Assembly: GCA_964385615.1 (NCBI GenBank)
Contig: CAYLPP010000001.1
Location: forward strand, 256,484 to 320,483
DNA from: an uncultured bacterium
Lineage (GTDB): Bacteria > Omnitrophota > Omnitrophia > Omnitrophales > Aquincolibacteriaceae
Reading direction: 5' to 3'
Length of the DNA stretch: 64,000 nt
The position numbers and the translations under genes are program-made. The notes below the pieces were generated by a model. The model saw only the letters and a list, made by a program, of their open reading frames with translations. It searched no databases and was not told the DNA's origin. This document shows, piece by piece, positions 15,367 to 36,919 of the stretch (within the stretch, counting starts at the first letter, position 1; every line of letters begins with the position of its first letter).

Positions 15367-18168
15367 TCAAACCACACCCGGTTTGACGGAAACTTCCTGT
15401 AGATGCTTCAATAAAAATTGCCCCGTATAAGACCCTTTAACTTTCAGAATCCCCTCTAAGTCTCCCGCGTAAATCAGTTCCCCGCCTTTGTCCCCGCCTT
15501 CCGGCCCCAGATCAACCACCGCATCCGCAGAGCGGATGACTTCCATATTGTGCTCAATGATGACCAGAGAATGGCCCCGGTTCAGGAGTTCATCAAAAGC
15601 TTCCATGAGGTAGTGAATATCGTGATAGTGAAGGCCCGTAGTCGGTTCATCAAAAAGGTAAAGAATATGTCCGTCTTTTTTTTCCGACATTTCAAAAGCC
15701 AGCTTCATGCGCTGAGCTTCCCCGCCGGAAAGAGTCGTCGCTGACTGACCAAGGCGTAAATAACCCAGCCCAACTTTTCTGAGAATGGAAAATTTCTGGA
15801 AAAGATTTTTTTCATTTTTAAAAAATTCGGACGCGTCATCAACCGTCATGGAGAGCACATCATCCACATTTCTGCCTTGATAGGTAACTTCCAGAATTTC
15901 CGGTTTAAATCTTTTCCCCCGGCATTGCTCGCAGGTCATGTAAATATCCGCCAGGAAATGCATTTCCACCTTGATCCGGCCGTCGCCTTTGCAGGCAGGA
16001 CACCGGCCTCCGTCCACGTTGAAAGAAAAATGGCCGGGCTCAAACCCTTCCCGCTTGGCCTGACCCGTCGCCGCGAAAAGTTTTCGAATGTCATCAAAAG
16101 CGTTCAGATACGTCGCGGGATTGGAACGGGGCGTGCGTCCGATCGGCGACTGATCCACGACGACCATTTCATCAATCTGCTCAAACCCTTCGATTTTTTT
16201 AACCTGCCCCAGATCCTGAACGGGGCGGCCGCGGTAGCGCAGGTACTGTTTATGAAGAATATCGTAAAGCAGTGTGCTTTTCCCTGAGCCGGAGACACCG
16301 GTAATCACGACGAAAGACTCCAGCGGAATAGAAACAGAAATATTTTTAAGATTATTCTGAACCGCGCCTTGGATCTTGATGAATTTCTGTTTTTTGGGTT
16401 TATTTCCGGAGCGTCTCTTGACCTCCATCCTCCCGGATAAATATTGGCCTGTCAAAGACTCCCGGCTTTTTTTAATCTGTGAAACGCTTCCCTGAAAAAG
16501 AATCCGCCCTCCGCCTTCACCGCCCGAAGGTCCCAGATCGATAATTTCATCCGCGGCTTCCATCATCGCGCGGTCATGTTCAACCACCACCACGGTGTTG
16601 CCAAGTTCACGAAGACGGTGAAGAAGGCTGATCAGAAGATGATTGTCCCGCTCGTGAAGACCCACACTGGGTTCGTCCAGAACATAAAGAGTATCGACAA
16701 GCGCTGAACCCAGCGAGGTCGCCAAATGAATCCGCTGAACTTCTCCGCCTGAAAGCGTGCGCGATAAACGGCCTAAGCTGAGATAACTGAGCCCGACATC
16801 ATTTAAGAACCGCACGCGGCGCTGGAGCTCCAGATAAACGGGTTCGGCTTTTTCTTTTTCAGCCGCGGAAAGCTTCATGCCGTCAAAAAAATCCCGGACG
16901 GCTTCCAGGCTCATCAGCTGAAGCTCATGGATGTTTTTCCCGCGCACCAAAACCCAAAGTGATTCGGGTTTTAACCGCGTTTCCGCGCAGGTTTTGCAGG
17001 GCTCAAAACAGCGGTACTTCGCCAGGAAAATACGGACATGCATTTTGTAGGTTTTCTTTTCGAGGTATTTAAAAAACTCCTGAACGCTGAAATAATCGCC
17101 TTCTTTCTGATAGGGTTTCCCGGGCTCCCCCGTAAGAATCCAGTCACGATGGGTTTTGGAAAGTTTTTTCCATGGAACATCCATGGGGATTTTCTTCTGC
17201 TTGCAGAATACGGCGAGCCTTTTAGCTTCCCACTCTGAACTGGGTTTGGTCCAGGGCTCAATCGCGCCTTCCGCCAAGGTTTTATTTTCGTCCGGAATGA
17301 CCAGGTTCCAGTCCAGGGTAATGACCCGTCCGAAGCCCTGGCAGACCGGGCAGGCTCCCAGCGGACTATTGAAAGAAAAGAGATTTGGGACAGGTTCCCG
17401 GAAAGTTTTTCCGCAAGAAAAACAGCCTAGTTTTTCAGAGAACTCAAGCAGTTTACCGCCCGCGAAAACCTGGGCTTCGCCTTTGCCGTAGCGGAAGGCC
17501 AGTTCTAACGAATCCATAAGGCGTTTGCGGGACGCAGGTGAAACCTCAACGCTGTCCACAACAACGCGCACATCTTTGATTTTTTTCAGAGAAAGCAGTT
17601 CTTCAGCCGTAAGAATTTTCCCGCCATTAAAAAATTCCGTGAAACCCTGGCGCTCGAGCTCCGGGAGAAATTCTTTAAGATGTTTGGCCGCTTTTTCGCC
17701 AACCGCGACCTTGTAAAGGATCAGGGTTTTCTGACCCGCGTATTTTTCCCGAAGAAATTCCGAAACGCTTTCAGGACGGCTGGCCCGGACTTCAACCTTG
17801 CAATCTGGGCAAAAGGTCAGGCCGATCCGGGCAAAGAAAACCCGGAGATAATCGTTAATTTCCGTTTGGGTTCCAACCGTGGAGCGGGCGTTGGTGATCA
17901 CGTTCTTGGCTTCAATCGCGATCGCGGGAGGGATGCCGGAAACGGAGTCCGCGTCCGGCTTTTCCATGCGCTCCAGAAACTGGCGCGCGTAAGAAGAAAG
18001 GGATTCCACATAGCGGCGCTGGCCCTCAGCATAAAGCGTGTCGAAAGCAAGCGAAGACTTACCTGAACCTGAGACACCAGTTACCACGTAAAGCTTCCGG
18101 TGAGGCAGAATCAGATCAAAATTCTTGAGATTATGGGTTTTGACACCCTGAAGAATAATCGCGTCCAT
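15367..18168 (-). CDS. uvrA: excinuclease ABC subunit A
   Basis: 933 aa with two ABC ATPase modules (GVSGSGKSS twice), zinc-finger insertions and a canonical N-terminus MDAIILQGVKTHNLKN. Confidence 0.95.
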   Translation of the reverse strand: MDAIILQGVKTHNLKNFDLILPHRKLYVVTGVSGSGKSSLAFDTLYAEGQRRYVESLSSYARQFLERMEKPDADSVSGIPPAIAIEAKNVITNARSTVGTQTEINDYLRVFFARIGLTFCPDCKVEVRASRPESVSEFLREKYAGQKTLILYKVAVGEKAAKHLKEFLPELERQGFTEFFNGGKILTAEELLSLKKIKDVRVVVDSVEVSPASRKRLMDSLELAFRYGKGEAQVFAGGKLLEFSEKLGCFSCGKTFREPVPNLFSFNSPLGACPVCQGFGRVITLDWNLVIPDENKTLAEGAIEPWTKPSSEWEAKRLAVFCKQKKIPMDVPWKKLSKTHRDWILTGEPGKPYQKEGDYFSVQEFFKYLEKKTYKMHVRIFLAKYRCFEPCKTCAETRLKPESLWVLVRGKNIHELQLMSLEAVRDFFDGMKLSAAEKEKAEPVYLELQRRVRFLNDVGLSYLSLGRLSRTLSGGEVQRIHLATSLGSALVDTLYVLDEPSVGLHERDNHLLISLLHRLRELGNTVVVVEHDRAMMEAADEIIDLGPSGGEGGGRILFQGSVSQIKKSRESLTGQYLSGRMEVKRRSGNKPKKQKFIKIQGAVQNNLKNISVSIPLESFVVITGVSGSGKSTLLYDILHKQYLRYRGRPVQDLGQVKKIEGFEQIDEMVVVDQSPIGRTPRSNPATYLNAFDDIRKLFAATGQAKREGFEPGHFSFNVDGGRCPACKGDGRIKVEMHFLADIYMTCEQCRGKRFKPEILEVTYQGRNVDDVLSMTVDDASEFFKNEKNLFQKFSILRKVGLGYLRLGQSATTLSGGEAQRMKLAFEMSEKKDGHILYLFDEPTTGLHYHDIHYLMEAFDELLNRGHSLVIIEHNMEVIRSADAVVDLGPEGGDKGGELIYAGDLEGILKVKGSYTGQFLLKHLQEVSVKPGVV

Positions 18169-18171
18169 AAA

Positions 18172-18206
18172 TAAAAAAGGGGCGGCGCTTGGTTTCGCGC
18201 CGCCCC
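18172..18206 (-). terminator. strong intrinsic terminator (10-bp GC stem GGGGCGGCGC/GCGCCGCCCC, 8-nt loop, then TTTTTTAT on minus strand)
   Basis: Seen directly. It is downstream of the OM-protein operon (lipoprotein stop at 18230) and ends 4 nt before the uvrA ATG. Confidence 0.65.
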
Positions 18207-18229
18207 TGCATTATACACCAAATTCCGGT

Positions 18230-18643
18230 TTAAAGTTCCGAACTGACGTACTTCTCGATTTTCTTGAGCATCGCGCCCCCGCCGAGAACATGGCGGGATT
18301 CCGGAGCAATCTCAACCGTTGTAATTTTCCGGGTAAGCCTTTTAACTACGAACGTCATCAACCGGCGGTCAGAATCATCCGGGCGCGTCCAATCCAGATT
18401 GCGGACCCTAATCGTTCCCTTTTCTTTTTCGGTAATATCAAGCTCCCAGCCTTCCATGTTACCCACCGCTTCAAGAGTGCGGAGGTAAACCAGGTCATAC
18501 GGAAGTTCATATTGAAGAACTTCATCATTCGCGGGATAAATAATGCTCTTCTGAATAGACGATTTACAGCCCGCGGTGAAAAACAGAATGCTCACGAGAG
18601 AATAAAAGAAAAATGCTTTCGACTTCATAAATAGTCTCCTCAC
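18230..18643 (-). CDS. small lipoprotein (137 aa), last gene of the OM-protein operon
   Basis: Signal peptide with lipobox FFTAGC. The start codon overlaps the stop of the 1555-aa protein (TAATG). No recognisable domain. Confidence 0.6.
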   Translation of the reverse strand: MRRLFMKSKAFFFYSLVSILFFTAGCKSSIQKSIIYPANDEVLQYELPYDLVYLRTLEAVGNMEGWELDITEKEKGTIRVRNLDWTRPDDSDRRLMTFVVKRLTRKITTVEIAPESRHVLGGGAMLKKIEKYVSSEL

Positions 18644-21600
18644 TAAATCTTCCCGGTCAAGCGGACAAAAGGGCCATGACTGTTGATATTACTGCTCTTA
18701 CGTAGATCATCGTCAAAATCCGTAAAATTATAACCCACCCCGAGGCGGACATAATCATAAAGTTCACGGTCAACCTCAACCAGGGCGCCGTGCTTGAGGG
18801 TCTGAGCCGCGTCAAACTGCCATAGCGCCCGGTATTCCAGAGCCACGTCCCACTTGCGGGTCACATGAAAATTGAACCGGTTGACCCACAGAAAATTATG
18901 CAGCACCAGCTGGTTGGTCAGACTGCCGTCAAGCAGGGAGCGCTTATAGGCCAGTTTCTCGACCAATCCCAAATTGCGGTGAATTTCGTAAGCCAGGTCA
19001 ATCGCCAGAATGTGAGCCGTCTCATCCACGTTGGCTCCCTGATAGATACCGCCGTAAAACTGCGCATCATTGGCAATATCTTTCAGGTAGGTATAACGGG
19101 TAAGGATATTCAGGCGGTCATTATCCACAGGCCGGTACGCGGCACCCATGCTCATCTCCGTAAAGCCCGCCTGTAAATTATCAGGATCTATAAAATCGGT
19201 TTTGCCGTAATCAAATTTTCCAAGCGCGCTGATATCCTGCGTTACTTTGTGTTCAACCAGATTACGGCTGACCCATTGAGAAAGACGGGGCGTATCCTGA
19301 TCGCGCCGGTACTCCAAAGAAACACGGGCTTTGGTTTTTTTGTAGTTATTGTAGGCGACACCGCCGGTAATTGTATTGAAACTGTTTGAGCGGATGTATC
19401 CAGCCTGCGCGGTATCATCCAGCAGGCGGGTCGTGGAATTTTTCAAATGCCGGCGCTCGCCTCTTAACTCGAAACTCCACTGATCATTGATCTGATTTTG
19501 ATAACCCATTGCGTCGGTCGCGTACCCGTCAACGGAAGAGTAAGAAGTGTACTGGCGTTCCGAATAGAGCCGGGATTTCTCAGTTAGAGAGAAAGAATCC
19601 CCGAGAGTCGTGGTTAAAAGCGGTAACCCGGTACCCAAATCAAGCATACGCATATTGGCATACGAACGGGTTGAACCGCGGTACTGTTCGATCCCGAACT
19701 GAGTCGAATCCCCGATATTGCCAAACATCTGTTCCACATAGGCGAACATATGGTTCACAAGCTCATAACGGACACCGGCGCCGTACTGGCGGTTAGGTTT
19801 ACCGTCAAAAGTCGTCTGCACTTTCACATAAGGCAGGATCCTGTCGTTAAAGCGCTTCCCGATTTTTCCGGTCAGAGCGTTTTTATTCTGATCTTCATAG
19901 AGAAGCGTCGGAAGAAGATTGACCGGAGGGAAAGCCGCTACGCTTCTGCGGTATTCAACTTCTCCCAGCCAGTTACCGTCATCGTAAACCAGCTCGCCGG
20001 TATGATTGCGGTAACTGCTGAACGGCGCCGAAAGCCCGGTCGTTTCAAGCGGAAGAGCGCGGTTTTCAGCCGCTGCATTATCAAAACGGTAGCGGGCATA
20101 AATCGAATCCGTGAATTTATATTTCGCGGCAAATCCGTATTTATGGGTTCCCGCCTGGCTTTGCGTGTTGCTGGTTGAAAATCCGGGATGAATCCCCTGA
20201 ATGTACCCGGAAGTTTCAAGATTCTTGACCGGTTTGGACTCCGCCTTCAAAAGATAAGCCTTATCGGGAACGGTCCTTCGCGCCTGCGGAAGCCGTGTAT
20301 CACCGAAAGTCAAACCGCCGTTATAAGAAACTCCCGACTCCGTCTGTTGGTTCTTGGATTCCGCGTATTCCATCGTCACTTTGGTGTTACGGCCCATTTT
20401 GATGGTGCCGTCAATTCCACGCACATCGTAATCCAGATTCTGACGCTTTTCTTTAACCGCGGTCGCGCCAATGCGGATATGATCGCCCATGTGCGTGTAA
20501 CCGCGAAGTCCGCCGTTATTGTTATCAAAAGCCGAAGGCCCCGCGTCATATTCGTAATCCACAATTAAATAAAGCGGGGCGCCGTCAAGAATATCGGTTG
20601 AACTCAAGGTGTCGGAAGCCGTTACGGAAGAAAGCGGACGGGACAAAAGAATACGGCCTTCCCGGTAATCAATCTCATAATCCTTCCCCTCAACGAGATC
20701 ATAGCTCTGAAGAACCATATCCTGGATTTTATCGCGTACTTCCACCCGGATTTTCTCGCTTCCTTCAATGATGTTGCGGAAACGGACATAGTAAAGCGAT
20801 CCGCCGGTTGCCGCGAACTCGTTATGATCCGGGAGGTTCTGCGTGCGCGCTCCGAAAAATTTAATTCCCCGCTTCGGATCACCGTAAGGCGTACTGTCGA
20901 GCGTTTCAAAACTCCCCTGAAGCCCCGTAAGTGTCCGGTTGTAAGTGGCTAATTCCGTATCGGTAAACCCGGTTTTAAAACTTCCGTATTTCAGATGAGC
21001 CTTGTCCTGTTCAACGACGAGAAAAAACCGGCTGGCCGTGTCGCGCGCCTCATAATCAATCGAGGAAGCATCTCCGTAAACCGGATAGTACTGATCGGGA
21101 TCCAGATTGGTAAAAAGAGCTGACCGGCGGTCATCGGTATCATAATGGGACTTAACAATAAACTTCCCTTTAATCTTCCCTTTCAAATAATAGGAAAGCC
21201 GTCCCTCTTCATAAAAACCGTCTTTAAAGGTATCTTCCTGAGCCACGGTCTGAAGGTTGCCGTCCGTGAAATTAATCCCCATTTGCTCTTCGCCTAAAGC
21301 TGTCATAAAAAACGTGCTGTCTTTGACCAGGATGGACTTCTGAACCGTTGTCGTTTCTCCTTCGGGGCTGGCCGTGCTGACTTGAATCTGCTTTTGGCCG
21401 GGCGCAGTGTAAATTTGCGTTTCAAAAAGACCGTCAGGCTGAACTTCAATTGTGTACGAATTCACGCGTACCTTGTTGCCCGGCTTGGTCCGGCCCTGAA
21501 CCCGGATCGTGGGCTTGGCGATCAAAGGAATACTGCGGCGCCCGTCTTTAAAAATATTAAAATCTCCGATGGGAGGAATTTCCTGGATTTTTTTCTCGGC

Positions 21601-23310
21601 GTCTTTATCAAGCTTGGAAATAACCCGGAAAAACTGAAGCGGGGTCCAATCCTGGTGCCCCTGGGCATCCGTCACTTTAAATTGATAAGAATAAACTCCC
21701 GGCTTCACCATAAGACCGTTTTCCGCTTTTCCGGGCCAAATGACTTCATCCGGCGGAGCGGAAACACCGAAACCAGTCCAAACTTCCGCGCCGGATTCAT
21801 CCCGAATTTCCAGGTACCATCCCTTGACCATATCAGGATAATTAATTTTGAATCTAAAAGAAGGCTCCTTTTCCAAGACTCCGATCCCTATCTTCAGCAG
21901 ATCCGGCTCGATCTGAACACCCAGAGTCGGCTGTGCCGTATCCAGGCCTTGAGTCACGGAAACCGACAAATCTTTTTCAAAAGCGGCGGGAAGCTGCGAC
22001 GGCGGAATCCAGACAGCGAAATTGGCTTTATTTAAAATACCCGGCGTTGTTTTAACGAGAAAGGATTCTTCCGTTACAAACTGAGACCCCTCCGGAAGAC
22101 TGTGACCGTCAACTTTAATCACGTGCCGGCCCGGCTTAACCGCGGGGATGTGATACATACCGTTTTCGTCTGTCGTGACAACAATTCCCTCTTCAGTCGC
22201 GATCTGCACGAAAGGAATTCCTTTTTCACCGCCGGTGCATTTTTCCGCTGTCCCGACAATCACGCAATCATCCTGAACTCCGTTTTTATTGAGGTCATTA
22301 AAAACCTTACCGATAATGGTTCCTTCGTCGAAAACAGGATCCAGTTCAGGCCGGACAATCACTTCAACAGGAGTTGTCACCCCGTTCGAGTGCCTTACGA
22401 AAATGGTCAGAACATAACTCTTGCCGGCAACGGCCGCGGATGAAAGCACAACCGGAATCCCGAAGACCACGTCTTCACCGGCGTTCAAATTGAGGCCGAA
22501 AATAACCGAACCTTCGCGATTGCCAAGCGGCCGGCCGTCAAACTTAGCTTGGTCAGCTTTGACAATCAGACCATCCTGAGGCTCAATGACCAAATCGCCG
22601 GATTGCGTAATGGAAGTCTGGTTGTGAAGCTGAACGGTGATTAATTTCAGCTGACCGGGTTTGGAGCTGGAATTCACCGGGGAAGCGTTGACGGTGATGG
22701 GATCGCTTGAAAAGGTTCCGATCATATTATCGAAATCCGCGATAAATGTTCCACCGACATCCCCTGCCGTGGACGGCTGAATACGAATCACGAAAGTCAC
22801 CTGCCCGGTACCGGCCGGAGCCGTACCGCTGACAGAGTATCTTGAGAAGGTTGAAGTCACCGCGGTCGGAAGTGAAAAGGTATCCGCGCTGATAAAAACG
22901 CCCGCGGCAGTCTGGTACTCCAGACGAATCTGCGCGACTTCAGCACCGTTATTGGCAACCACCCGGCCCAAACCGCTGAAAGTGACAACTTGGCCGACGC
23001 TGGCACCTGTGACCGTCTGAAAGGTGAAAACTCCGCCAAAACCGGCATTGAGCGTTGAAGGTTCTGAAAGACGCATATAGCTGGAACCTTCAGGCGCGTC
23101 GGAAGCCGTGCGCTGTGAAATACCGCGGTTGGATTCACTGTTCCAGTTCGTCTGCCCGTTGGTATTGCCCAAAGCATTTTCAAAGTTGGGGTTTTGAAGA
23201 ACGTTAGCCGCGGCATACGCTTCCACCGTGGAAAAGAAAATACCCGCAGCCAGCGTAAAAAATACGGCCGTCTTCACTGCCATTGGGTTTAACCGCGGTC
23301 TTTTATCCAT
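18643..23310 (-). CDS. giant secreted/outer-membrane multidomain protein (1555 aa): signal peptide, CBM4_9-like N-terminal module, SdrD-B/CarboxypepD_reg-like and Ig-like repeats, about 900-aa aromatic-rich beta-rich C-terminal region
   Basis: Cleavable signal peptide (…FSTVEAYAAAN). NPNFENALGNTNGQTNW resembles a carbohydrate-binding CBM4_9 start. GKVFNDLNKNGVQDD…TTDENGMYHI is an SdrD-B-type fold. The C-terminal two-thirds is Y/F/W/G-rich with alternating hydrophobicity but lacks a terminal Phe. Confidence 0.8.
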   Translation of the reverse strand: MDKRPRLNPMAVKTAVFFTLAAGIFFSTVEAYAAANVLQNPNFENALGNTNGQTNWNSESNRGISQRTASDAPEGSSYMRLSEPSTLNAGFGGVFTFQTVTGASVGQVVTFSGLGRVVANNGAEVAQIRLEYQTAAGVFISADTFSLPTAVTSTFSRYSVSGTAPAGTGQVTFVIRIQPSTAGDVGGTFIADFDNMIGTFSSDPITVNASPVNSSSKPGQLKLITVQLHNQTSITQSGDLVIEPQDGLIVKADQAKFDGRPLGNREGSVIFGLNLNAGEDVVFGIPVVLSSAAVAGKSYVLTIFVRHSNGVTTPVEVIVRPELDPVFDEGTIIGKVFNDLNKNGVQDDCVIVGTAEKCTGGEKGIPFVQIATEEGIVVTTDENGMYHIPAVKPGRHVIKVDGHSLPEGSQFVTEESFLVKTTPGILNKANFAVWIPPSQLPAAFEKDLSVSVTQGLDTAQPTLGVQIEPDLLKIGIGVLEKEPSFRFKINYPDMVKGWYLEIRDESGAEVWTGFGVSAPPDEVIWPGKAENGLMVKPGVYSYQFKVTDAQGHQDWTPLQFFRVISKLDKDAEKKIQEIPPIGDFNIFKDGRRSIPLIAKPTIRVQGRTKPGNKVRVNSYTIEVQPDGLFETQIYTAPGQKQIQVSTASPEGETTTVQKSILVKDSTFFMTALGEEQMGINFTDGNLQTVAQEDTFKDGFYEEGRLSYYLKGKIKGKFIVKSHYDTDDRRSALFTNLDPDQYYPVYGDASSIDYEARDTASRFFLVVEQDKAHLKYGSFKTGFTDTELATYNRTLTGLQGSFETLDSTPYGDPKRGIKFFGARTQNLPDHNEFAATGGSLYYVRFRNIIEGSEKIRVEVRDKIQDMVLQSYDLVEGKDYEIDYREGRILLSRPLSSVTASDTLSSTDILDGAPLYLIVDYEYDAGPSAFDNNNGGLRGYTHMGDHIRIGATAVKEKRQNLDYDVRGIDGTIKMGRNTKVTMEYAESKNQQTESGVSYNGGLTFGDTRLPQARRTVPDKAYLLKAESKPVKNLETSGYIQGIHPGFSTSNTQSQAGTHKYGFAAKYKFTDSIYARYRFDNAAAENRALPLETTGLSAPFSSYRNHTGELVYDDGNWLGEVEYRRSVAAFPPVNLLPTLLYEDQNKNALTGKIGKRFNDRILPYVKVQTTFDGKPNRQYGAGVRYELVNHMFAYVEQMFGNIGDSTQFGIEQYRGSTRSYANMRMLDLGTGLPLLTTTLGDSFSLTEKSRLYSERQYTSYSSVDGYATDAMGYQNQINDQWSFELRGERRHLKNSTTRLLDDTAQAGYIRSNSFNTITGGVAYNNYKKTKARVSLEYRRDQDTPRLSQWVSRNLVEHKVTQDISALGKFDYGKTDFIDPDNLQAGFTEMSMGAAYRPVDNDRLNILTRYTYLKDIANDAQFYGGIYQGANVDETAHILAIDLAYEIHRNLGLVEKLAYKRSLLDGSLTNQLVLHNFLWVNRFNFHVTRKWDVALEYRALWQFDAAQTLKHGALVEVDRELYDYVRLGVGYNFTDFDDDLRKSSNINSHGPFVRLTGKI

Positions 23311-23312
23311 AA

Positions 23313-24893
23313 TTAGAAGCGCCTGCTCGACCAGTTAACGCCGAATCTCAAATCCCAATCGGGATGCGTCTGGGAATCATTGACCCCTTGTTTGGTGCTG
23401 TAAGCTCCGCCCACACCGACATACTCAACAAAAAGTTTGGTCTTATACAGCCATTCATTATCGCGCCATTTATAAGTGCGGAAAGGCATCCAGCGAATAC
23501 CGCCGGCCAGGAACCAGCGGTTCTGGTAAGGAAAAGAAAATTCGCTGTTGTTGACGTGCTCCAGACGGGCATAAGGCATGGCAACGAATTCATCGTTAAT
23601 AGGGTTGGGGGGAAGCGGAATGCCCGGCATGGTCAACCCAAGCGTGATTGAAGAGTTAAAAATGAAAGCGTTAAAATCATCTTCGATTGAAAAGCCCGTA
23701 CGGTCAAACGTGTAACTGCCGAAATACTCACCCCAGGTGTAAAGACGCAGGTAATCCTGCCAGGTTGAAGGCGCGACAGCATCCGCGATCGCCGGCAAAT
23801 CCACTCCCCATTCATAGAAAATATTGACGCCGGCAATAAGGTTGTAGTTGCGGCTGCCCGTAATGTCATCGCGCAGGTTAATGCGGGTGCCATACTGGAC
23901 AAACATCCGGTAACTCTTAACAAAATCCAGGAGATGCAAACCGAAGGGCGCGTAATTGCTCAAAAAAGTATTATTAGCCAGAGGGCGGTATTCAAGACCC
24001 GTAAAGATCTGCATATTTTGTTTGAATCCAATGCTGTTGGACTCAAGCGCGGCGGTAATTTCAATATACGGGTCAATCGTATTTAACGGAGCGCGGATCC
24101 CCTTAAACACAAACCGGTTGGTCCAGAAACCTACCTGCGAATGGAATTTTTCAGATTCAAGGTTGGTTAAACGGTAGGAAGATTCCCCGAAAGACTGCCA
24201 TACGAATTTCTCGCCGACAGGCGTTCCCTGAAACGGCCCGAAAAGCTCGTTGCCGATATCCAGCTGATCCATGAATTTGAGCGCGATCTGCTCTTCCTTT
24301 TCAAACTGCTCGCGGGTCTGCGGAGTTTCAATCACGGTGTCAGAAACCGGAACAAAAACCTTGTCGGCTTCCTGAACCGATTTCATGAAATCACCGCCCT
24401 TGGATTCGATAACCGTGCGGGACATGGTCACTTGAGCTTCAGCGGCCTGACTGGAGTCAAAAGCTTTATGCCCGACCCAGTAAACCATTTTTTCATTACC
24501 AACACCCGATGGAATCGCAAGGCGCTTAATCATCACACCCTGAAAATCCGCCGTCTGAATTTTTTCCTTCACCCATTTCTGAACATCTTCAAGACTGTTC
24601 AAATTGGGGATGTAACGGCTCTTGACCGCGTTAGGTCCGAAATCGGTAACTACGGAATATTGGGTATTGAGTTCCCGGTCGGGAGTTTGGATGAAAACAA
24701 GACCGCCGACACTGGCTGTCTTATATTGAAGACGCTGATCGCTGGGAAGATAGAATTCCTGCGCGAATAAATTGGATTGGGGCGCGGCGGGTTCAGCAGC
24801 CGGAACCGCGGACGGCGCTTTAACCTTAACTTCTTCAGCAAAGGCACTGCCGGACATCAGCGCCAGACTGACTATTAAAACCCAGAAACGCAT
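23313..24893 (-). CDS. outer-membrane beta-barrel protein (about 526 aa mature), first gene of the OM operon
   Basis: Signal peptide MRFWVLIVSLALMSGSAFA. The C-terminal half has an amphipathic beta-strand pattern ending …VNWSSRRF (C-terminal Phe, the OMP sorting signal). The ORF extends to 24956, but the signal peptide starts at the internal Met. There is a 2-nt gap to the giant gene. Confidence 0.75.
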   Translation of the reverse strand: MRFWVLIVSLALMSGSAFAEEVKVKAPSAVPAAEPAAPQSNLFAQEFYLPSDQRLQYKTASVGGLVFIQTPDRELNTQYSVVTDFGPNAVKSRYIPNLNSLEDVQKWVKEKIQTADFQGVMIKRLAIPSGVGNEKMVYWVGHKAFDSSQAAEAQVTMSRTVIESKGGDFMKSVQEADKVFVPVSDTVIETPQTREQFEKEEQIALKFMDQLDIGNELFGPFQGTPVGEKFVWQSFGESSYRLTNLESEKFHSQVGFWTNRFVFKGIRAPLNTIDPYIEITAALESNSIGFKQNMQIFTGLEYRPLANNTFLSNYAPFGLHLLDFVKSYRMFVQYGTRINLRDDITGSRNYNLIAGVNIFYEWGVDLPAIADAVAPSTWQDYLRLYTWGEYFGSYTFDRTGFSIEDDFNAFIFNSSITLGLTMPGIPLPPNPINDEFVAMPYARLEHVNNSEFSFPYQNRWFLAGGIRWMPFRTYKWRDNEWLYKTKLFVEYVGVGGAYSTKQGVNDSQTHPDWDLRFGVNWSSRRF

Positions 24894-24981
24894 GCCGTTC
24901 CTTCCAGCGTTCGTCTTTCTAATGAGTTGAAAGAAGTTAACAAAAAAATTGAGCATTCATCATTGAACGCTCAACAACCTT

Positions 24982-30745: not shown

Positions 30746-32008
30746 TTATTGAGTAACAAACGAAGGAATGGTCTCCCCTTCAAGGAGGCTTGCCACGGTT
30801 TCCCGCTTGCGGACTACGGCAAATTTATTTCCCTTAACCAGAACTTCCACGGGACGCGGATGGGAATTGTAGTTCGACGACATGACAAAACCATAAGCAC
30901 CGGCACTCATGAAAGCGACAAGATCTCCCGATTTCAATTCCTGAATGTGCCGTTCTTTGGCCAGAAAGTCGCCACTCTCGCAGATAGGCCCGACCACATC
31001 GTAAACCCACTTCGAGCTTTTCTCATTTTTAGTCAGCGGATAAACTTCATGATGCGCGCCGTAAAGCGTGGGGCGGATCAGGCTGTTCATACCCGTATCG
31101 ATAATCGCGAAATTCTTAACCTTGGTCTGTTTGATGTAAAGAACCTTGCTGACCAGGATACCGCCGTTAGCGGAAATAAACCGGCCGGGTTCAAAAATAA
31201 CCTGATATTTCCGCCCGCGGAAAAGAGGCAGTACATTTTTAGCGAATTCTTCAGCCGTTTGGGGATTTTCGGTACTGTAAATCACGCCCAGTCCGCCTCC
31301 AAGATTTAGAAACTTAATCTTAACCTTATCTTTCTCAAGTTCATCAATAAATGCCAGAACTTTCCAGAAAGCTTCAACAAACGGCTGACCGGTTACGATC
31401 TGAGAGCCGATATGCACGTGAATACCGCAGATTGAAAGGTTCGAATAATGCGCGCGGCGGTGAAAAACACCGCGGGCCGTGTCCAGATCCATGCCGAATT
31501 TGCTCTCCGCTTTTCCGGTCGCGATATGATCATGCGTCTTGGGGTCAACGCCGGGATTGATGCGGAGTGAAATGTTCGCGGTTTTTTTCAAACGCTTGGC
31601 GACGGCATTAATCGCATCCAGCTCAGGAACGGATTCAACGTTAAAAAGCAGAATCCCGTAACGGATCGCCTGCTCAATTTCATCCTCAGTTTTTCCCACG
31701 CCCGCGTAAACAATTTTCTCAGGCGGACAGCCTGCCTTTTTCGCGCGGTAAAGTTCACCGCCCGAAACAATGTCCAGCCCCGCGCCTTTGGCAACCAGAG
31801 ATTTCAGGATGGCCAGATTGGAATTGGCCTTCATGGAATAGCAGATCAGCGGCTTAACCGATTTAAACGCCTTTTGAATTTTAGCCAAATGCTCCGTGAA
31901 TGTTTTGTGGCTGTAAATATAAACGGGGGTTCCGACCTTTTCCGCGATATCACGGACGCGGACCTTTTCACAATAAAGTTCGTTTCCAGAATAAAAAAAA
32001 TCGTGCAT
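30746..32008 (-). CDS. lysA: diaminopimelate decarboxylase
   Basis: 420 aa; fold-III PLP decarboxylase with the CYSMKAN lysine motif and C-terminal ESGD region typical of LysA. Confidence 0.95.
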   Translation of the reverse strand: MHDFFYSGNELYCEKVRVRDIAEKVGTPVYIYSHKTFTEHLAKIQKAFKSVKPLICYSMKANSNLAILKSLVAKGAGLDIVSGGELYRAKKAGCPPEKIVYAGVGKTEDEIEQAIRYGILLFNVESVPELDAINAVAKRLKKTANISLRINPGVDPKTHDHIATGKAESKFGMDLDTARGVFHRRAHYSNLSICGIHVHIGSQIVTGQPFVEAFWKVLAFIDELEKDKVKIKFLNLGGGLGVIYSTENPQTAEEFAKNVLPLFRGRKYQVIFEPGRFISANGGILVSKVLYIKQTKVKNFAIIDTGMNSLIRPTLYGAHHEVYPLTKNEKSSKWVYDVVGPICESGDFLAKERHIQELKSGDLVAFMSAGAYGFVMSSNYNSHPRPVEVLVKGNKFAVVRKRETVASLLEGETIPSFVTQ

Positions 32009-32028: not shown

Positions 32029-33411
32029 TTAACCGCGGAATTTTTTCTGCCAGCCGGCAATTTCCTGCTTAACCCGCGCGGGGTGAGTACTGCCGATGGT
32101 TTTTTTGGCATTCACCGAAACCTGCGGGTCGAAAAGTTCGTAAACCCGGGAATCGAAAAACTTCGAAAAGGTTTTCCATTCATTCATTGAAAGCTCACGA
32201 ATCTGTTTGTCGGCGTCCTGCGCGTAGCGGACAACTTTACCGACCGTTTCATGCGCTTCCGAAAAAGCCGCGCCCTTGCAAACCAGGTATTCCAGAATAT
32301 CCGTCGCGAAAAGCGTGTCATCCAAAACCGATTCGGCCAAAGCCCGCGGTTTAAAAGACACGGTTTCAACTGTCAGCGCGAGGAGTTCAAGCGCCATCAG
32401 AGTTTTCCGGGAAGCTTCAAATACCGCAGGTTTATCTTCCTGAAGATCCCGGTTGTACGCCAACGGCAGGCCTTTCTGCAGAGTCAAAATCGCCTGAAGA
32501 TTGGAGAACACCACGCCCGCCCGGCCGCGGACCAGTTCAAACACGTCCGGATTTTTTTTCTGAGGCATCAGGCTCGAGCCCGTCGCGAACGCGTCATCCA
32601 GCTCGATGTAGCCGAAAGCTTCTGAGTTCCACAAAATAAAATCTTCCGAAAGACGCGACAAATGAACCCAGAGAATCGAAACCGCGCTTAAAAATTCCGC
32701 GAGAAAACCACGGTCACTCGTCGCCGCCATGCTGTTGGAGGCAATTTTAGAAAAACCCAGTTCTTTGGCGACCGACTTTTGATCCAGAGGCAGCGCGGAA
32801 CCGGCCAGAGCGGCGGAGCCTAAAGGCATGACATTGACCCGTTTGAGCGCGTCCGCGAGACGTTCCCGGTCTTCTTCAATCATTTCAACATATGCCAGCA
32901 GGTGATGCGCGACAAGCACCGGCTGGGCTTTACGAAGGTGTGTCATACCGGCAAAAACCCGCTCTTCCGCCTTGACCGCGAGTTTCACAAGCGCCTTCTG
33001 CAGACCCCGGGTTCCGGCAAGAATCCCTTCCATTTTTTCACGCAGGCAAACCCGCGTGGAAGTCACCACAAGATCATTACGGCTCCGGCCTGTGTGAATC
33101 TTTTTAGCCACGGCACCGGCTTTTTTTTCGACAAAAGACTGCACCAGACTGTGCACGTCTTCATATTCCCTCATGTATTCACAAAGCGGTTTGCCTTTCA
33201 ATTCTTTCTCAACGGAATTCAGGGCGCGCACAATTTTCCCGGCTTCGCTTTTCTTGATAATCCCCGTCCGGCCGAGCATTTTCGCCCAGGCCCGGTTAAC
33301 CCGGAGCTCAGCGGACAAAAGCTCCCCGTCAACAGCCAGTGAATAACTGAAGCATTTTAAAGCAGGATGCATTTCTTTTTTGAAACGCCCGCCCCACATC
33401 CCTTTTTTCAT
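32029..33411 (-). CDS. argH: argininosuccinate lyase
   Basis: GSSLMPQKKNPDVFELVRG signature of the fumarate-lyase family, ArgH type. The start is placed at MKKGMWGGRF; the ORF extends to 33438. Confidence 0.9.
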   Translation of the reverse strand: MKKGMWGGRFKKEMHPALKCFSYSLAVDGELLSAELRVNRAWAKMLGRTGIIKKSEAGKIVRALNSVEKELKGKPLCEYMREYEDVHSLVQSFVEKKAGAVAKKIHTGRSRNDLVVTSTRVCLREKMEGILAGTRGLQKALVKLAVKAEERVFAGMTHLRKAQPVLVAHHLLAYVEMIEEDRERLADALKRVNVMPLGSAALAGSALPLDQKSVAKELGFSKIASNSMAATSDRGFLAEFLSAVSILWVHLSRLSEDFILWNSEAFGYIELDDAFATGSSLMPQKKNPDVFELVRGRAGVVFSNLQAILTLQKGLPLAYNRDLQEDKPAVFEASRKTLMALELLALTVETVSFKPRALAESVLDDTLFATDILEYLVCKGAAFSEAHETVGKVVRYAQDADKQIRELSMNEWKTFSKFFDSRVYELFDPQVSVNAKKTIGSTHPARVKQEIAGWQKKFRG

Positions 33412-33484
33412 ATGAGTATGTCCTTTGTTTAACTGCACCCGCGAATGTGCCCGCGTTAACCTGGCGCGCGCAGCGCGGCAGGCA

Positions 33485-34684
33485 TTAATGGGCTTTTGTT
33501 TTTCGGCTCCCGAGTCCCTCGTATGGGAGCCCCCAGATTTTCATAAACCCTTCCGCGGATTTACGGTCAAAAATATCGCCTTCGGAATAAGTCGCGAGTT
33601 TTTCGGAATAAAGCGAAAACGGAGACTTACGGCCCACGATAATCGCATGGCCTTTTTCAAGTCTCATCCGTATTTTTCCGGTCACGCGCTTCTGATTCGA
33701 CGCGAAGAAATGGTCGAGCGAATCTTTCAGAGGCGAAAACCACAGACCGAAATAAACCAGTTCCGCGTACTTTTCGGAAAGCAGTTTCTTGTAGTGGCTG
33801 TACTCCCGGTCCATGACCATGCCTTCAAGGTCTTCATGCGCCTTAATCAGCACATGCGCGGCCGGAGCTTCATAAACCTCACGGCTCTTGATGCCGACCA
33901 GCCGGTTTTCGATCTGGTCAAAACGGCCCACACCGTAAGCGCCCGCGATTTCATTCAGTTCCTCGATCAGCTTCACAAAACCTTTGGCTTTGCCATCAAG
34001 CTTGACCGGAACACCTTCTTCAAAATCAATCTCGATATAACGGGGCTTGTTTGGAACCTTGTCTAAACCGCGGGTCATGACGTAAGCGTCTTCGGGCGGT
34101 TCCTGCATGGGGTTCTCAAGAATACCGGCTTCAATCGCGATGCCCCAAATGTTCTTGTCGATCGAGTACGGAGTTTTCTTGGTCGCGTCCACAGGAATAT
34201 TATTCTTCTTCGCGTATTCAATTTCTTCTTCGCGGGTTTTAAATTCCCAGGTGCGCAGAGGCGCGATGATTTTCAATTTCGGATTCAGCGTGCGGACCCC
34301 GACTTCGATACGGACCTGATCGTTGCCTTTCCCCGTGCAGCCGTGGGCGATGTATTCCGCTTTTTCTTTTTCAGCAACCTGAACCAGATGCTTGGCAATC
34401 AGCGGACGGCCAAGCGCGGTCGCGAGAGGATAACCGCCTTCATAACGCGCGTGCGCCCAAAGCGCCGGCATGAGGAAATCCCGGGCAAACTCTTCCTTGA
34501 GATCTTCAATGTAAACCGTGGTGGAACCGGCCGCATTCGCGCGGGTGATCAGTTTTTTCTTATCGCTAACTTCTCCGATAAATGCTGAAAAACAGACGAC
34601 TTCAAAGCCGTACTGATCCTGAAGCCATTTAACCGCGCATGAGGTGTCGAGACCGCCCGAATAAGCCAAAACTACTTTCTTCAT
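33485..34684 (-). CDS. argG: argininosuccinate synthase
   Basis: MKKVVLAYSGGLDTS PP-loop start; 399 aa. The ORF track's 40-codon upstream extension is unlikely to be coding. Confidence 0.9.
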   Translation of the reverse strand: MKKVVLAYSGGLDTSCAVKWLQDQYGFEVVCFSAFIGEVSDKKKLITRANAAGSTTVYIEDLKEEFARDFLMPALWAHARYEGGYPLATALGRPLIAKHLVQVAEKEKAEYIAHGCTGKGNDQVRIEVGVRTLNPKLKIIAPLRTWEFKTREEEIEYAKKNNIPVDATKKTPYSIDKNIWGIAIEAGILENPMQEPPEDAYVMTRGLDKVPNKPRYIEIDFEEGVPVKLDGKAKGFVKLIEELNEIAGAYGVGRFDQIENRLVGIKSREVYEAPAAHVLIKAHEDLEGMVMDREYSHYKKLLSEKYAELVYFGLWFSPLKDSLDHFFASNQKRVTGKIRMRLEKGHAIIVGRKSPFSLYSEKLATYSEGDIFDRKSAEGFMKIWGLPYEGLGSRKTKAH

Positions 34685-34797
34685 TTTAAATCTCCTTAAT
34701 GAGCGCAAGATTTGCGGAGCCGAAGGCACCGCCAAATCTCCCGCGCGAATTAACCCCAGGAGCCCGCGGCCTAGCGGGCGACGTGGGATTTCAAATA

Positions 34798-35724: not shown

Positions 35725-36911
35725 GACGCCTCCTGCAGTGTTTTTTCAAGAATAGCCATTCCTTTGTCGAGCAAAGTTTTAGTGACAGTCATCGCGGGCA
35801 TAATCCGCAAAACTTTTTCTTGGGTGCAGTTGATTAAAAGACCGTGGTCACGGGCCTTGTCCGCAATCGCGGCTCCAGGCACGGAAAGCTCAAGCGCCCG
35901 CATCAGCCCCATGCCTTTGACCTTCACGATCAAATTGGGAAATTTCTGACGGAGGGTTTCCATTTTTTTACCGAGGTAATCCCCCATCTTCACGGTATTG
36001 GCCAGAAGTTTTTCCTGCTTCACGGCTTTAAATACCGCGAGCGCGGCCGCGCAAACCAGCGGGTTACCGCCGTAAGTTGACGCGTGAGTACCTGGAGTAA
36101 AAACTTCTTTTTTGATTTTTTTATTGGCCACCAGCGCCCCGATCGGAACGCCATTGCCGAAAGATTTAGCCAGAGTCATCAGGTCGGGTTCAATACCGTA
36201 GTGCTGGTAAGCGAACATTTTCCCGGTCCGCCCCATGCCGGTCTGGACCTCATCCAGAATCAGAAGCATATCTTTTTCATCGCAAATCTTCCGCAGGGCC
36301 TTCATAAACTCCGGAGCGGCAACATTCACGCCGCCTTCCCCTTGAATGGGCTCCAGAAAAATCGCGATGGTTTTATCCGTTATCTGGCTTTTGACCGATT
36401 CCAGATCATTCAATTCCGCGTATTTAAAACCCGCGGGCAGCGGTTCGAACCCTTTTTTAACCTTATCCTGCCCCGTCGCGGCAATTGCCGCCAGCGTGCG
36501 CCCGTGAAAGGATTGTTTCATGGTGATAATTTCATACCGGCCGGAATCATGGCCGTACTTGCGGGCAAATTTCACGGCGGCTTCGGTCGCTTCGGCGCCG
36601 GAATTACAGAAAAAAGACCGGGCCGGAAAAGACGCTTTCGAAATGGCTTCCGCCAGCAGAGCCTGTTTGGGATTCAGAAAATTATTGGAGACATGAAACA
36701 TTTTCCGCGCCTGTTCTTTCACGGCATTCACAACCGCGGGGTGACAATGGCCGAGGCCGGAAACCGCCCATCCGGGGAAAAAATCGAGATATTCTCTACC
36801 TTCCAAATCCCAGACGCGCGAACCCTTGCCTTTAACCAGGCAGACGGAAACCTGCGTGTAGGTCGGAAGAACGTACTGCTGATAGAGAGCCTGAATGTCT
36901 TTAGTTTTCAT
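35721..36911 (-). CDS. argD: acetylornithine aminotransferase
   Basis: 396 aa class-III aminotransferase with a [17 protein letters not shown]-lysine region. Confidence 0.9.
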
Positions 36912-36919
36912 GGTAAAAG

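Follow-up and report, generated by a model that had tools for sequence, protein, structure and literature searches.

Genes g1, g2 and g3 lie on the minus strand of a 64,000-nt stretch of Omnitrophota DNA (hereafter the window). Across Omnitrophota, g1-g2(-g3) forms an envelope operon that is inherited vertically. Based on signal peptides and a lipobox, all three products are predicted to be exported, g1 and g2 as integral beta-barrels of the outer membrane and g3 as a lipoprotein. We tentatively propose that the three form a core complex of the envelope, acting as a giant pore or as a connector bound to the periplasm or cell wall.

Gene layout and conserved linkage

As claimed in an earlier sequence-only reading, three co-directional open reading frames (ORFs) occupy positions 23313 to 24956 (g1), 18643 to 23310 (g2) and 18230 to 18643 (g3) of the minus strand, with a gap of 2 nt between g1 and g2. 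Since all three have many full-length homologues, they are genes and not chance ORFs. The TAATG stop/start overlap described for g2 and g3 is not present: the g2 stop is TAG and the junction reads TAGTGAGGAGACTATTTATG, which places the g3 start at ATG 18628, 14 nt past the g2 stop and with a GGAG Shine-Dalgarno motif in front. The product of g3 (18230 to 18628, minus strand) is accordingly 132 aa and not 137 aa long; its lipoprotein character stands, as the Cys of the lipobox FTAGC is invariant. Homologues of g3 start with MK..., and the NCBI record holds the exact 132-aa form. The 547 aa given for g1 also require revision. Its start is most likely ATG 24893, yielding a 526-aa protein (23313 to 24893, minus strand) with the signal peptide MRFWVLIV..., and the NCBI record carries the identical sequence in this form. 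The alternative ATG at 24956, which the longest ORF reaches, sits within a terminator-like hairpin after dapB.

Downstream of g3, an intrinsic-terminator-like hairpin with a T-run is found on the minus strand at 18168 to 18207 (AGGGGCGGCGC-GAAACCAA-GCGCCGCCCCT followed by TTTTTATTT). The hairpin itself (18178 to 18207) has 11 pairs, 10 of them G-C. The strong terminator said to close the operon was confirmed, but the unit is not cleanly closed toward uvrA, because the T-tract extends into the uvrA ATG at 18168. A second, weaker terminator-like hairpin with a T-run (24948 to 24975, minus strand) separates the stop of dapB from the start of g1, pointing to separate transcription of g1-g2-g3. The base composition of the three genes is like that of the surrounding DNA.

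The housekeeping surroundings, uvrA downstream and dapB, dapA and dapF upstream, were confirmed. Every Omnitrophota locus with sufficient flanking sequence has the order dapB-g1-g2-g3-uvrA, with g3 sometimes missing, and this order persists down to 39–45% g2 identity with most junctions at 0–20 nt. Matches to the g3 HMM came from 23 Omnitrophota loci, solely directly downstream of g2; several lineages have no g3. Conserved order alone is weak evidence in Omnitrophota, because the functionally unrelated dapF-dapA-dapB ... uvrA block is conserved as well, and g1, g2 and g3 might be unrelated envelope genes in an old shared order. We regard this as highly improbable. In two unrelated contexts without dapB and uvrA, g1 is still the immediate upstream neighbor of divergent g2-like genes (36% identity). 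Among the 84 loci examined, members of the g1 and g3 families occur only beside g2 or g2-like genes, and the junctions measure 2 nt here and 0–20 nt elsewhere. The earlier idea of an undescribed gene module was borne out for the outer membrane, and its synteny is conserved.

Predicted architecture of the three proteins

The g1 protein consists of a signal peptide (MRFWVLIVSLALMSGSAFA), a short Ala/Pro linker, an alpha/beta domain of ~140 aa, helices and a 12-strand beta-barrel. The signal peptide and the C-terminal ...SSRRF are both read in the sequence as previously noted, and the predicted structure (pLDDT 88) ends in a generic 12-strand barrel, which supports the assignment to the outer membrane. 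By structure comparison, the model was closest to PcoB, KdgM-type porins, OMPLA and autotransporter beta-domains, and the top Foldseek matches were the BrkA, Hbp and EspP beta-domains and FapF, with target-normalised TM-scores of only ~0.4. Neither g1 nor g3 matched any entry in Pfam, NCBIfam or PDB sequences, and g3 has no known relatives. No peptidoglycan-binding domain was matched in the N-terminal alpha/beta domain of g1. The g1 family is small, with 107 matches in protein databases, all unnamed or from Omnitrophota, and 108 in a search of 1.84 billion representatives. Remote relatives of the g1 barrel have an N-terminal Glyco_hydro_17 domain fused to it.

In the 1,555-aa g2 protein (18643 to 23310, minus strand), a signal peptide is followed by five beta-sandwich modules and, over the C-terminal 895 aa, by an outer-membrane barrel module. 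About 110 full-length homologues with 40–72% identity were found, all annotated as hypothetical; those with a named source are from Omnitrophica. Apart from SdrD_B-type Ig modules, g2 had no match in Pfam, NCBIfam or PDB sequences, and in the window's own protein the Pfam matches were confined to Ig modules and were sub-threshold. All modules described below are on the minus strand. The first beta-rich module (residues 35–205; 22696 to 23208) carries the motif NVLxNPxFE...NW...FTFQ...FD and had been likened to CBM4_9. In six of seven sequences, including the window's, it had no Pfam match at E ≤ 10, and the seventh gave only weak non-CBM matches (MG2 and two others). Searching PDB sequences with a profile of the module likewise retrieved no CBM, which leaves the glycan-binding reading unsupported. 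No peptidoglycan-binding domain was matched in this module either. It is followed by a DUF11-like Ig module (residues 206–325; 22336 to 22695), for which PF01345 is precomputed in several homologues. These two distal modules are the least conserved parts of g2, with mean column identities of 0.49 and 0.45, respectively.

The SdrD_B/CarboxypepD_reg-like module (residues 326–440; 21991 to 22335; motif DxNxNGxxD) is highly conserved, with a column identity of 0.73, and is common to relatives in other phyla: tblastn recovered residues ~300–436 in most of 48 loci from these phyla. Two further Ig-like modules, FlgD_ig-like and Glucodextran_B-like by sub-threshold Pfam matches (residues 441–662; 21325 to 21990), contain AF2 strands at pLDDT 80–90 and are nearly constant in length among homologues. 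The Ig-like repeats proposed earlier are therefore present, but the window's own SdrD_B, FlgD_ig and Glucodextran_B matches fall below Pfam thresholds; SdrD_B is backed by PF17210, which is precomputed for most homologues, and by the sequence of the SdrD structure, which a profile matched at E = 1e-7.

Conservation is highest across residues 326–912 (column identity 0.63–0.75, lengths almost fixed) and peaks in the pre-barrel segment (residues 663–912; 20575 to 21324; column identity 0.72–0.75), whose motif LDPDxYYPxYGDxS was used as a scan pattern. In the AF2 model, which is of moderate quality (pLDDT 71.8), residues 666–762 are at pLDDT <50 and residues 763–890 form a beta-domain; the segment represents a plug or else the opening strands of the barrel. 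Alignments with homologues from other phyla begin at residue ~661, so that it belongs to the 895-aa evolutionary unit. Residues 913–1555 (18646 to 20574) are modeled as a very large beta-barrel with 35 DSSP strands, or 34–36 after parity correction, a count that describes the predicted model and not a verified barrel closure. Short length-invariant turns alternate with longer variable loops in the alignment, a pattern that, as read from sequence, is the classic OMP topology. The reported absence of a terminal Phe applies to the window's ...VRLTGKI but not to the family, as at least 90% of homologues have ...GKF at this position, and the last residue in relatives from other phyla is Y, F or W.

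In line with the sequence-only reading, the ~900-aa C-terminal region does not model as any known family. The closest structures were TonB-dependent transporters, LptD, MtrB, SlpA and FimD, but Pfam signatures for a TonB-dependent transporter, LptD or an autotransporter were absent from g2, and these assignments found no support in the tests applied. A role of g2 in nutrient uptake, as a gated importer like SusC or TonB-dependent transporters with a CarboxypepD_reg-type extension, a plug at 663–912 and g3 as a lipoprotein lid, seems quite improbable to us. It would account for the weak CarboxypepD_reg matches, for a barrel-then-lipoprotein order like that of SusC-SusD or BtuB-BtuG, and for the conserved pre-barrel segment, which could be a plug. 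However, g2 matched neither Plug (PF07715) nor TonB_dep_Rec (PF00593) even at E ≤ 0.1, the alignment to TonB-dependent transporters covered just 230–260 residues at 6–11% identity, the strand number is far above 22, no TonB box was identified, and g3, with only ~110 aa when mature, is missing in some lineages.

Relatives in other phyla and the orientation of g2

The 895-aa module has at least 580 relatives in many phyla, where it is always C-terminal and has an aromatic last residue. It defines an un-named, widespread family whose members end in a very large barrel and vary in their N-terminal Ig-like arrays. An OmpA-type peptidoglycan-binding domain was found just before the barrel or in an adjacent gene in 30 of 48 non-Omnitrophota loci. 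In 13 loci it is within the same ORF as the barrel, and in 17 further loci it is at the C-terminal end of a giant DUF11 ORF that adjoins the barrel gene, on the upstream side in 16 cases and on the downstream side in one (L077). The order in P0115, P0116 and P0119 is DUF11 - SdrD_B - (FlgD_ig) - OmpA - Glucodextran_B - barrel, and OmpA also precedes the barrel in L059; P0115 additionally has Big_1/Invasin_D3 modules. Because relatives insert the OmpA-type domain among the same Ig modules before the barrel, at least the barrel-proximal modules are placed in the periplasm, which argues against g2 being a simple exoprotein. In the loci examined, g1 and OmpA are mutually exclusive, with no OmpA domain in g1 loci and no g1 in OmpA loci, although phylogeny alone could account for this complementarity.

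This placement also bears on the possibility, to which we give a minor but real chance, that the giant barrel of g2 exports the protein's own N-terminal modules, alone or aided by g1, and that these act as an adhesin or host-recognition device of host-dependent nanobacteria. Omnitrophota have been proposed to be predators or parasites (PMC10066038). Like type Va autotransporters, g2 has a passenger-like N-terminus followed by a C-terminal barrel, with adhesin-type Ig modules (DUF11, SdrD_B, and Big_1/Invasin_D3 in P0115) and the greatest variability in its distal modules, as expected of exposed parts. Some relatives have 2,000–3,400 aa of DUF11, SdrD_B and Big_1-type modules, or adjoin giant DUF11/DUF7927 proteins. 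In g1, the succession of N-terminal domain, helix and C-terminal 12-strand barrel resembles type Va autotransporters and FapF, and the Glyco_hydro_17 fusions of its remote relatives would fit display. Against this, g2 has no Autotransporter (PF03797) match, its barrel is about three times too large, and conservation is higher in its SdrD_B and Ig modules than in the barrel, an unusual pattern if these were exposed passengers. Relatives carry an OmpA-type domain amid the same modules and show no obvious linker that would cross the membrane. The loss of the glycan-binding reading points the same way.

The analogies to two-partner secretion and ushers did not hold, as POTRA, ShlB, TPS, Usher and PapD signatures were lacking and g1 has 12 strands; on our favored reading, the genes do not encode a two-partner, usher or classical autotransporter secretion system. 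An unlikely alternative is a dedicated translocon exporting large substrates, with g2 as a gated giant channel like SprA or an usher, g1 as partner barrel and g3 as plug. The SprA-PorV-Plug translocon of type IX secretion has a 36-strand barrel, the largest solved; the g2 barrel is comparable in size, and both systems combine a giant barrel, a smaller outer-membrane barrel and a small accessory protein, a set that is conserved here. The size of the g2 barrel is near that of the largest known translocon (bioRxiv 10.64898/2026.03.07.710327). Candidate substrates would be giant proteins of Omnitrophota or, in Lysobacteraceae, the giant DUF11/OmpA proteins whose gene directly adjoins the barrel gene. 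However, no cargo gene is linked in Omnitrophota, where the neighbors are dapB and uvrA, no energising or periplasmic chaperone component was present, and several lineages do without g3.

A putative envelope complex

In the envelope complex that we tentatively favor, g1, g2 and g3 would assemble in the outer membrane, with g2 as a giant pore that segment 663–912 plugs or completes. The SdrD_B and Ig modules beside the barrel would extend into the periplasm as a stalk, and the complex would therefore be both a structural pore and a connector from the outer membrane to the cell wall. As obligatory partner of g2, g1, with its 12-strand barrel and N-terminal alpha/beta domain, may take the anchoring role of the fused OmpA domain in other phyla, and the dispensable g3 would accompany the barrel as a lipoprotein in the way that LptE accompanies LptD. 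Contrary to a connector, Omnitrophota g2 has no recognisable peptidoglycan-binding domain. Moreover, surface adhesins are where DUF11, SdrD_B and Big_1-type modules typically occur, and arrays of 2,000–3,400 aa are hard to fit into the periplasm.

Connector porins between outer membrane and cell wall are represented by SlpA of Deinococcus radiodurans and OmpM of diderm Firmicutes (PMC9388160, PMC10628300). The proposed complex would be alike in function, not in ancestry, to these and to OmpA. In contrast to SlpA and OmpM, to which it has no sequence relationship, g2 lacks an SLH domain and a coiled-coil stalk, its stalk being made of Ig-like modules; the Omnitrophota orthologue has no recognisable binding domain, and a partner barrel and a lipoprotein are co-encoded. 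OmpA family proteins have an 8-strand barrel and a C-terminal OmpA_C peptidoglycan-binding domain. Many g2 relatives in other phyla likewise have a genuine OmpA_C-like domain, either within the chain itself or encoded by an adjacent gene, but with the domain order reversed (binding domain before barrel) and a barrel several times larger, whereas the window's g2 has no OmpA domain. LptD-LptE combines a 26-strand barrel bearing an N-terminal beta-jellyroll with a plug lipoprotein; g2 differs in its larger strand count and the absence of LptD or OstA signals in Pfam and NCBIfam, and g3 in having no LptE signal and being dispensable in some lineages. Compared by description only, the size of the 895-aa module would fit the predicted superfamily of 38–40-strand single barrels (Solan et al, 2021, PNAS; PMC8346858), which comprises uncharacterised single-chain outer-membrane barrels that exceed all solved ones in size and frequently bear additional domains outside the barrel, and for which that paper gives no operon context or function. 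The genes g1-g2-g3 represent an operon with an un-named giant barrel that occurs throughout the uncultured phylum Omnitrophota and is unlike the secretion systems suggested earlier.

Gene boundaries, signals and surroundings

The operon consists of three linked minus-strand genes, g1 (small outer-membrane (OM) barrel protein), g2 (1,555-aa giant-barrel protein) and g3 (small lipoprotein), with dapF, dapA and dapB as upstream and uvrA and ftsH as downstream neighbours, and its GC content is that of the rest of the window. On the minus strand, the longest open reading frame (ORF) of g1 covers 23313..24956, the g2 ORF 18643..23310 and the longest g3 ORF 18230..18643. These coordinates bear out the 2-nt gap between g1 and g2 described in the sequence-only reading. 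The TAATG overlap that it placed between g2 and g3 is absent, since g2 ends in TAG and the junction reads TAGTGAGGAGACTATTTATG; the g3 start is accordingly ATG 18628, 14 nt past the g2 stop, with a GGAG Shine-Dalgarno sequence in front. This start agrees with the homologues, which begin MK..., and with the NCBI record, which holds the exact 132-aa form, so that the length of 137 aa given earlier has to be corrected. For g1, the most likely start is ATG 24893, yielding 526 aa with the signal peptide MRFWVLIVSLALMSGSAFA, and exactly this form is on record at NCBI. The upstream ATG of the longest ORF (24956) falls within a terminator-like hairpin directly after dapB (24948-24975; 12 pairs, only 4 of them G-C, then a T-run), which supports both the 526-aa start and a separate g1-g2-g3 transcript.

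A strong hairpin with a T-run was also present 3' of g3 (18178-18207; 11 pairs, 10 of them G-C). The proposed strong intrinsic terminator is thus there, but its function as a clean operon end is doubtful, as the T-tract abuts the start codon of uvrA (18168) and leaves no space for a Shine-Dalgarno sequence or promoter beyond the hairpin. Consequently, expression of uvrA must depend on read-through or on a start inside the hairpin or shortly before it, and the hairpin may serve for attenuation instead of marking a clean end of the operon. A perfect TATAAT lies between the g3 stop and the hairpin (window 18168-18230), in ...TTTGGTGTATAATGC.... Matches in the sigma-70 promoter scan did not exceed shuffle expectation, with none directly upstream of g1, and Rfam and tRNA scans revealed no RNA element within or beside the operon.

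The minus strand carries about 47 of the 54 ORFs of at least 100 aa in the window (1-64000), and every 2-kb bin has a negative GC skew (cumulative -2.3); the whole window belongs to one replichore, and its genes are strongly co-oriented. Beside the dap genes are lysA (30746-32008) and an arg cluster comprising argH, argG, argD and argJ (32029-39002). An 834-aa ORF (40823-43327, minus strand) gave weak, sub-threshold matches to DUF748 and YhdP (AsmA-like), and may encode an inter-membrane lipid-transport bridge protein, another envelope-biogenesis gene.

g1 and g2 are linked throughout the Omnitrophota

About 110 full-length homologues of g2 were retrieved (1,530-1,600 aa, 40-72% identity), all "hypothetical", and every named one belongs to Candidatus Omnitrophica/Omnitrophota. 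The 107 homologues of g1 are unnamed or from Omnitrophota, two being labelled merely "bacterium" or "Verrucomicrobiae bacterium", and a word search returned 16 homologues of g3. Across 32 Omnitrophota loci (tblastn and HMM), the order dapB-g1-g2-g3-uvrA was found wherever the contig was long enough, down to 39-45% g2 identity. A few lineages lack g3 (loci L001, L014, L015 and L021), and there uvrA comes directly after g2. The linkage of g1 and g2 is hence phylum-wide, and the three genes form a genuine, conserved and uncharacterised envelope cassette. A literature search returned nothing relevant on the operon or on Omnitrophota outer-membrane proteins.

The placement between dapB and uvrA is a frozen gene order of the main lineage. 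Two divergent g2-like proteins (P0113 and P0114; 36% identity, ~1,830 aa) are encoded in quite different genomic contexts, where a g1 homologue lies immediately upstream of each gene (E = 1e-81 and 2e-63) and g3 is found at neither. Because g1 is kept beside these divergent genes and g3 is sometimes missing, the conserved core is the g1-g2 pair and g3 is accessory. That the association is a mere frozen gene order, as the constant dapB-uvrA setting might suggest, is very improbable given the g1 homologues beside the genes for P0113 and P0114. Divergent Omnitrophota paralogues of the C-terminal barrel module of g2 (L039, L046, L055 and L053; ~31% identity) were also observed outside the dapB-uvrA locus, unaccompanied by g1 and g3, in proteins of 1,005 aa (barrel only) up to 4,326 aa (Ca. 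Gygaella obscura).

Predicted architecture of the three proteins

The operon encodes two exported OM barrel proteins, one with 12 strands and one with a very large barrel of a widespread un-named family, along with a lipoprotein. Against Pfam and NCBIfam, none of the three proteins gave a match above threshold, and searches against PDB sequences, with single sequences and profiles, returned the SdrD B domain alone. The AlphaFold model of g1 (101-sequence alignment, mean pLDDT 88) comprises, in order, a disordered Ala/Pro linker, an alpha/beta domain of ~140 aa, two to three helices and a 12-strand barrel ending in ...SSRRF; together with the signal peptide, this upholds the earlier description of g1 as an integral OM beta-barrel. 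Five g1 orthologues (P0187, P0245, P0201, P0185 and P0168) carry N-terminal extensions of 200-430 aa, with no Pfam domain and of low complexity (Ala/Pro/Lys/Glu-rich) after a conserved LSEEEEIALMM...LE.FK motif. The assignment of g3 as a lipoprotein likewise holds: its lipobox FTAGC contains a Cys that is invariant in 24 homologues, always behind a hydrophobic stretch. The mature form of g3 is ~110 aa, with no Pfam or PDB relative.

A g1 profile searched against 1.84 billion representative proteins gave only 108 matches, of which the remote ones are barrel-only proteins. Two remote relatives of the g1 barrel (P0296 and P0280; 800-1,060 aa) have the barrel at the C-terminus and a Glyco_hydro_17-like domain at the N-terminus, an autotransporter-like architecture for enzyme display. 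Type Va autotransporters combine a C-terminal 12-strand beta-domain (PF03797) with a pore-threading helix. The best Foldseek matches of g1 were BrkA, Hbp and EspP (E 3e-6; target-normalised TM 0.39-0.43), and g1 has the 12-strand barrel and preceding helix in common with type Va proteins, a likeness at the fold level only. PF03797 matched neither g1 nor g2, the latter having a predicted barrel of ~34-36 strands. Autotransporter-like surface display by the operon is rather unlikely.

In g2, a signal peptide recognised from the sequence (residues 1-34) is followed by a beta-rich N-module (residues 35-205), a DUF11-like module (residues 206-325; precomputed Pfam matches in homologues), an SdrD_B/CarboxypepD_reg-like module (residues 326-440; sub-threshold in the window, PF17210 in most homologues, SdrD at E=1e-7 with the family profile), two Ig-like modules (FlgD_ig-like and Glucodextran_B-like, residues 441-662; sub-threshold Pfam matches and the model) and the 895-aa C-terminal barrel module (residues 663-1555; model and homologue alignment). 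The N-module had been called CBM4_9-like from a short motif. At E<=10 in Pfam, six of seven N-module sequences, including that of the window, had no match and the seventh had weak non-CBM matches only (MG2, Ig_NUP210_15th and TRAPPC9); a profile against PDB sequences at E<=10 found no CBM family either. With neither PF02018 nor the solved CBM4, CBM9 or CBM22 jelly-rolls matched, the label was abandoned. Among Omnitrophota, mean column identity was highest in the SdrD_B module (0.73), residues 663-762 (0.72) and residues 763-890 (0.75), intermediate in the barrel (0.61), and lowest in the distal N-module (0.49) and the DUF11-like module (0.45).

The barrel module behaves as one evolutionary unit: with most homologues in other phyla, the alignment starts near residue 661 and extends to the C-terminus, and some of these homologues are scarcely longer than the module (~1,005-1,010 aa in total). 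It was modelled within residues 440-1555 (48 sequences, pLDDT 71.8, pTM 0.63). Residues 666-762 (window 21025-21315) have a pLDDT <50 and almost no secondary structure in the model; they are among the most conserved stretches of g2, also across phyla (LDPDxYYPxYGDxS; [DN]xYYP[IV]YGD), and may fold only inside the barrel lumen or in a complex. A small beta-domain is modelled with confidence at residues 763-890, and residues 913-1555 form 35 consecutive strands. Odd strands are followed by turns with a mean of 3.6 aa and essentially constant length among homologues, and even strands by loops with a mean of 10.2 aa and variable length, which is the classic pattern of OM proteins. By parity, the barrel would have 34 or 36 strands, either because the very short sixth strand is spurious or because one is lacking ahead of the first. 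As stated in the sequence-only reading, g2 lacks a terminal Phe, its last residue being Ile; that residue is peculiar to this orthologue, however, and the beta-signal is present in the family (...GPFVRxTGKF; in other phyla ...GWFLNLVGKY, or F or W). From signal peptides, modelled strand arrays and the aromatic C-terminus of the family, both g1 and g2 are predicted to be integral OM beta-barrel proteins and BAM substrates.

Relation to known systems, the barrel family and possible roles

In two-partner secretion, TpsB combines POTRA domains with a 16-strand Omp85-type barrel (ShlB/POTRA_2 Pfam signatures), and TpsA carries an N-terminal TPS (Haemagg_act) domain on a beta-helical exoprotein with no membrane anchor. 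The 12-strand g1 is not a TpsB, and g2 has no Haemagg_act match and ends in its own OM barrel. Chaperone-usher systems have a 24-strand usher (Usher/PapC_N/PapC_C), a PapD-like chaperone and pilin genes, to which the operon does not correspond. The two-partner secretion and usher analogies suggested earlier therefore fail on every defining feature that could be tested. The hallmarks of SprA, the translocon of type IX secretion, are its sequence signature, a laterally gated 36-strand barrel and linked T9SS genes, and g2 does not qualify as an SprA; a dedicated translocon, which would share with SprA a barrel of about this strand number, is unlikely. TonB-dependent transporters, including SusC, have a plug domain (PF07715), a 22-strand TonB_dep_Rec barrel (PF00593) and a TonB box. 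g2 is not a member of this class, and we regard a SusC/TonB-like uptake channel, with g2 as its large barrel, as quite improbable. LptD/LptE is marked by an OstA/LptD_N jellyroll, an LptD C-terminal barrel signature and the LptE lipoprotein; neither g2 nor g3 gave a Pfam or NCBIfam match to it, and the structural match was generic. Kinship with the anammox S-layer protein Kustd1514 was dropped, its relatives being a handful of Planctomycete proteins only.

With each species represented by one genome, relatives of the C-terminal part of g2 were found to be encoded at 580 places. Carriers include Planctomycetia, Brocadiia/Scalindua, Nitrospirae, Nitrospinota and, in Gammaproteobacteria and other Pseudomonadota, Lysobacter, Pseudoxanthomonas, Arenimonas, Thiobacillus, Granulosicoccaceae and others. 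In every case outside Omnitrophota, the barrel module forms the very C-terminus of a protein of 1,000-4,300 aa and is preceded by an array of modules such as DUF11, DUF7927 and SdrD_B, which varies between the proteins. In three of these proteins (P0115, P0116 and P0119) the order is (Big_1)-DUF11-SdrD_B-(FlgD_ig)-OmpA-Glucodextran_B-barrel, in agreement with NCBIfam, which is that of g2 plus an inserted bona fide OmpA_C-type peptidoglycan-binding domain. An OmpA HMM derived from the three proteins matched the barrel ORF in 13 of 48 non-Omnitrophota loci, and in 17 more it matched the C-terminal end of an adjacent giant DUF11 ORF (upstream of the barrel gene in 16, downstream in L077). At L070, the upstream ORF stops 7 nt ahead of the barrel gene. 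A distant relative of g2 at L059 also has an OmpA_C-like domain, and PF00691 is absent from g2 of the window and all ~110 close homologues.

In Lysobacteraceae/Pseudoxanthomonas (L070, 1889-14953, and similarly L069-L080), the barrel gene adjoins that of a 2,400-3,000-aa DUF7927/DUF11/Cna-B-like repeat protein ending in OmpA; at L070, a CshA_NR2/SpaA_4/GEVED/DUF11 protein follows. Cultured Gram-negatives thus combine a giant OM barrel with a Gram-positive-pilin-like repeat protein. No universal partner gene was found beside the non-Omnitrophota barrel homologues; shadow ORFs dominated the clusters, and the sole recurrent neighbours were Ig-repeat and OmpA proteins.

Since OmpA_C domains function in the periplasm, at least the barrel-proximal modules of the OmpA-bearing relatives are periplasmic. 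By homology of module order, the SdrD_B and Ig modules of g2 are likely periplasmic as well. Neither g1 nor g3 was found at any of the 48 non-Omnitrophota loci, and no g2 accompanied by g1 has an OmpA domain; this complementarity is suggestive and could simply be phylogeny.

We tentatively favour a connector or pore, in which g1, g2 and g3 would form one OM complex. The giant barrel of g2 would be anchored to the periplasm or cell wall via its conserved Ig stalk, residues 663-912 would plug or complete the barrel, g1 would be the obligate partner and g3 accessory. OmpM/SlpA-type connectors bind pyruvylated cell-wall polymers through an N-terminal SLH domain, and no SLH was detected in g1, g2, the N-module sequences or the profile search against PDB. 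SlpA and OmpM are the closest functional analogues of the proposed connector (PMC9388160, PMC10628300). Among solved single-chain barrels, SprA is the largest, at 36 strands (bioRxiv 10.64898/2026.03.07.710327; 10.1101/2022.10.09.511469), and a superfamily of 38-40-strand barrels has been predicted from sequence (Solan et al., PMC8346858). A stronger claim is possible, if on the whole doubtful: that residues 663-1555 form a single-chain OM barrel of 34-40 strands, at least the size of SprA, which with g1 and g3 makes up a previously unrecognised, phylum-wide Omnitrophota envelope machine (either the main OM-to-cell-wall tether, in place of a fused OmpA domain, or a gated channel of giant size), its barrel module representing a large un-named family over many diderm phyla.

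If the strand count holds, the g2 barrel would rank with the largest known membrane barrels made of a single chain, which would raise the questions of its assembly by BAM/TAM, of the nature of its plug, and of OM tethering in lineages that lack classical tethers. The Omnitrophota, an uncultured phylum of mostly ultra-small and probably host-dependent bacteria, have an envelope that is, to our knowledge, essentially undescribed. A three-gene OM cassette found phylum-wide at one locus is a strong candidate for a core component of this envelope. Although Pfam, NCBIfam and PDB contain no relative of the barrel module, it occurs at a minimum of 580 places in the genomes of many phyla; its presence in cultured Lysobacter and Pseudoxanthomonas, among them Lysobacter yangpyeongensis KACC 11407 and Pseudoxanthomonas sacheonensis BE107, makes genetic study feasible, and its recurrent association with OmpA-type domains and giant DUF11 repeat proteins provides concrete, testable hypotheses. 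The main points are the size and breadth of this un-named barrel family, its recurrent link to peptidoglycan-binding domains and its likely core role in the envelope of an uncultured phylum.
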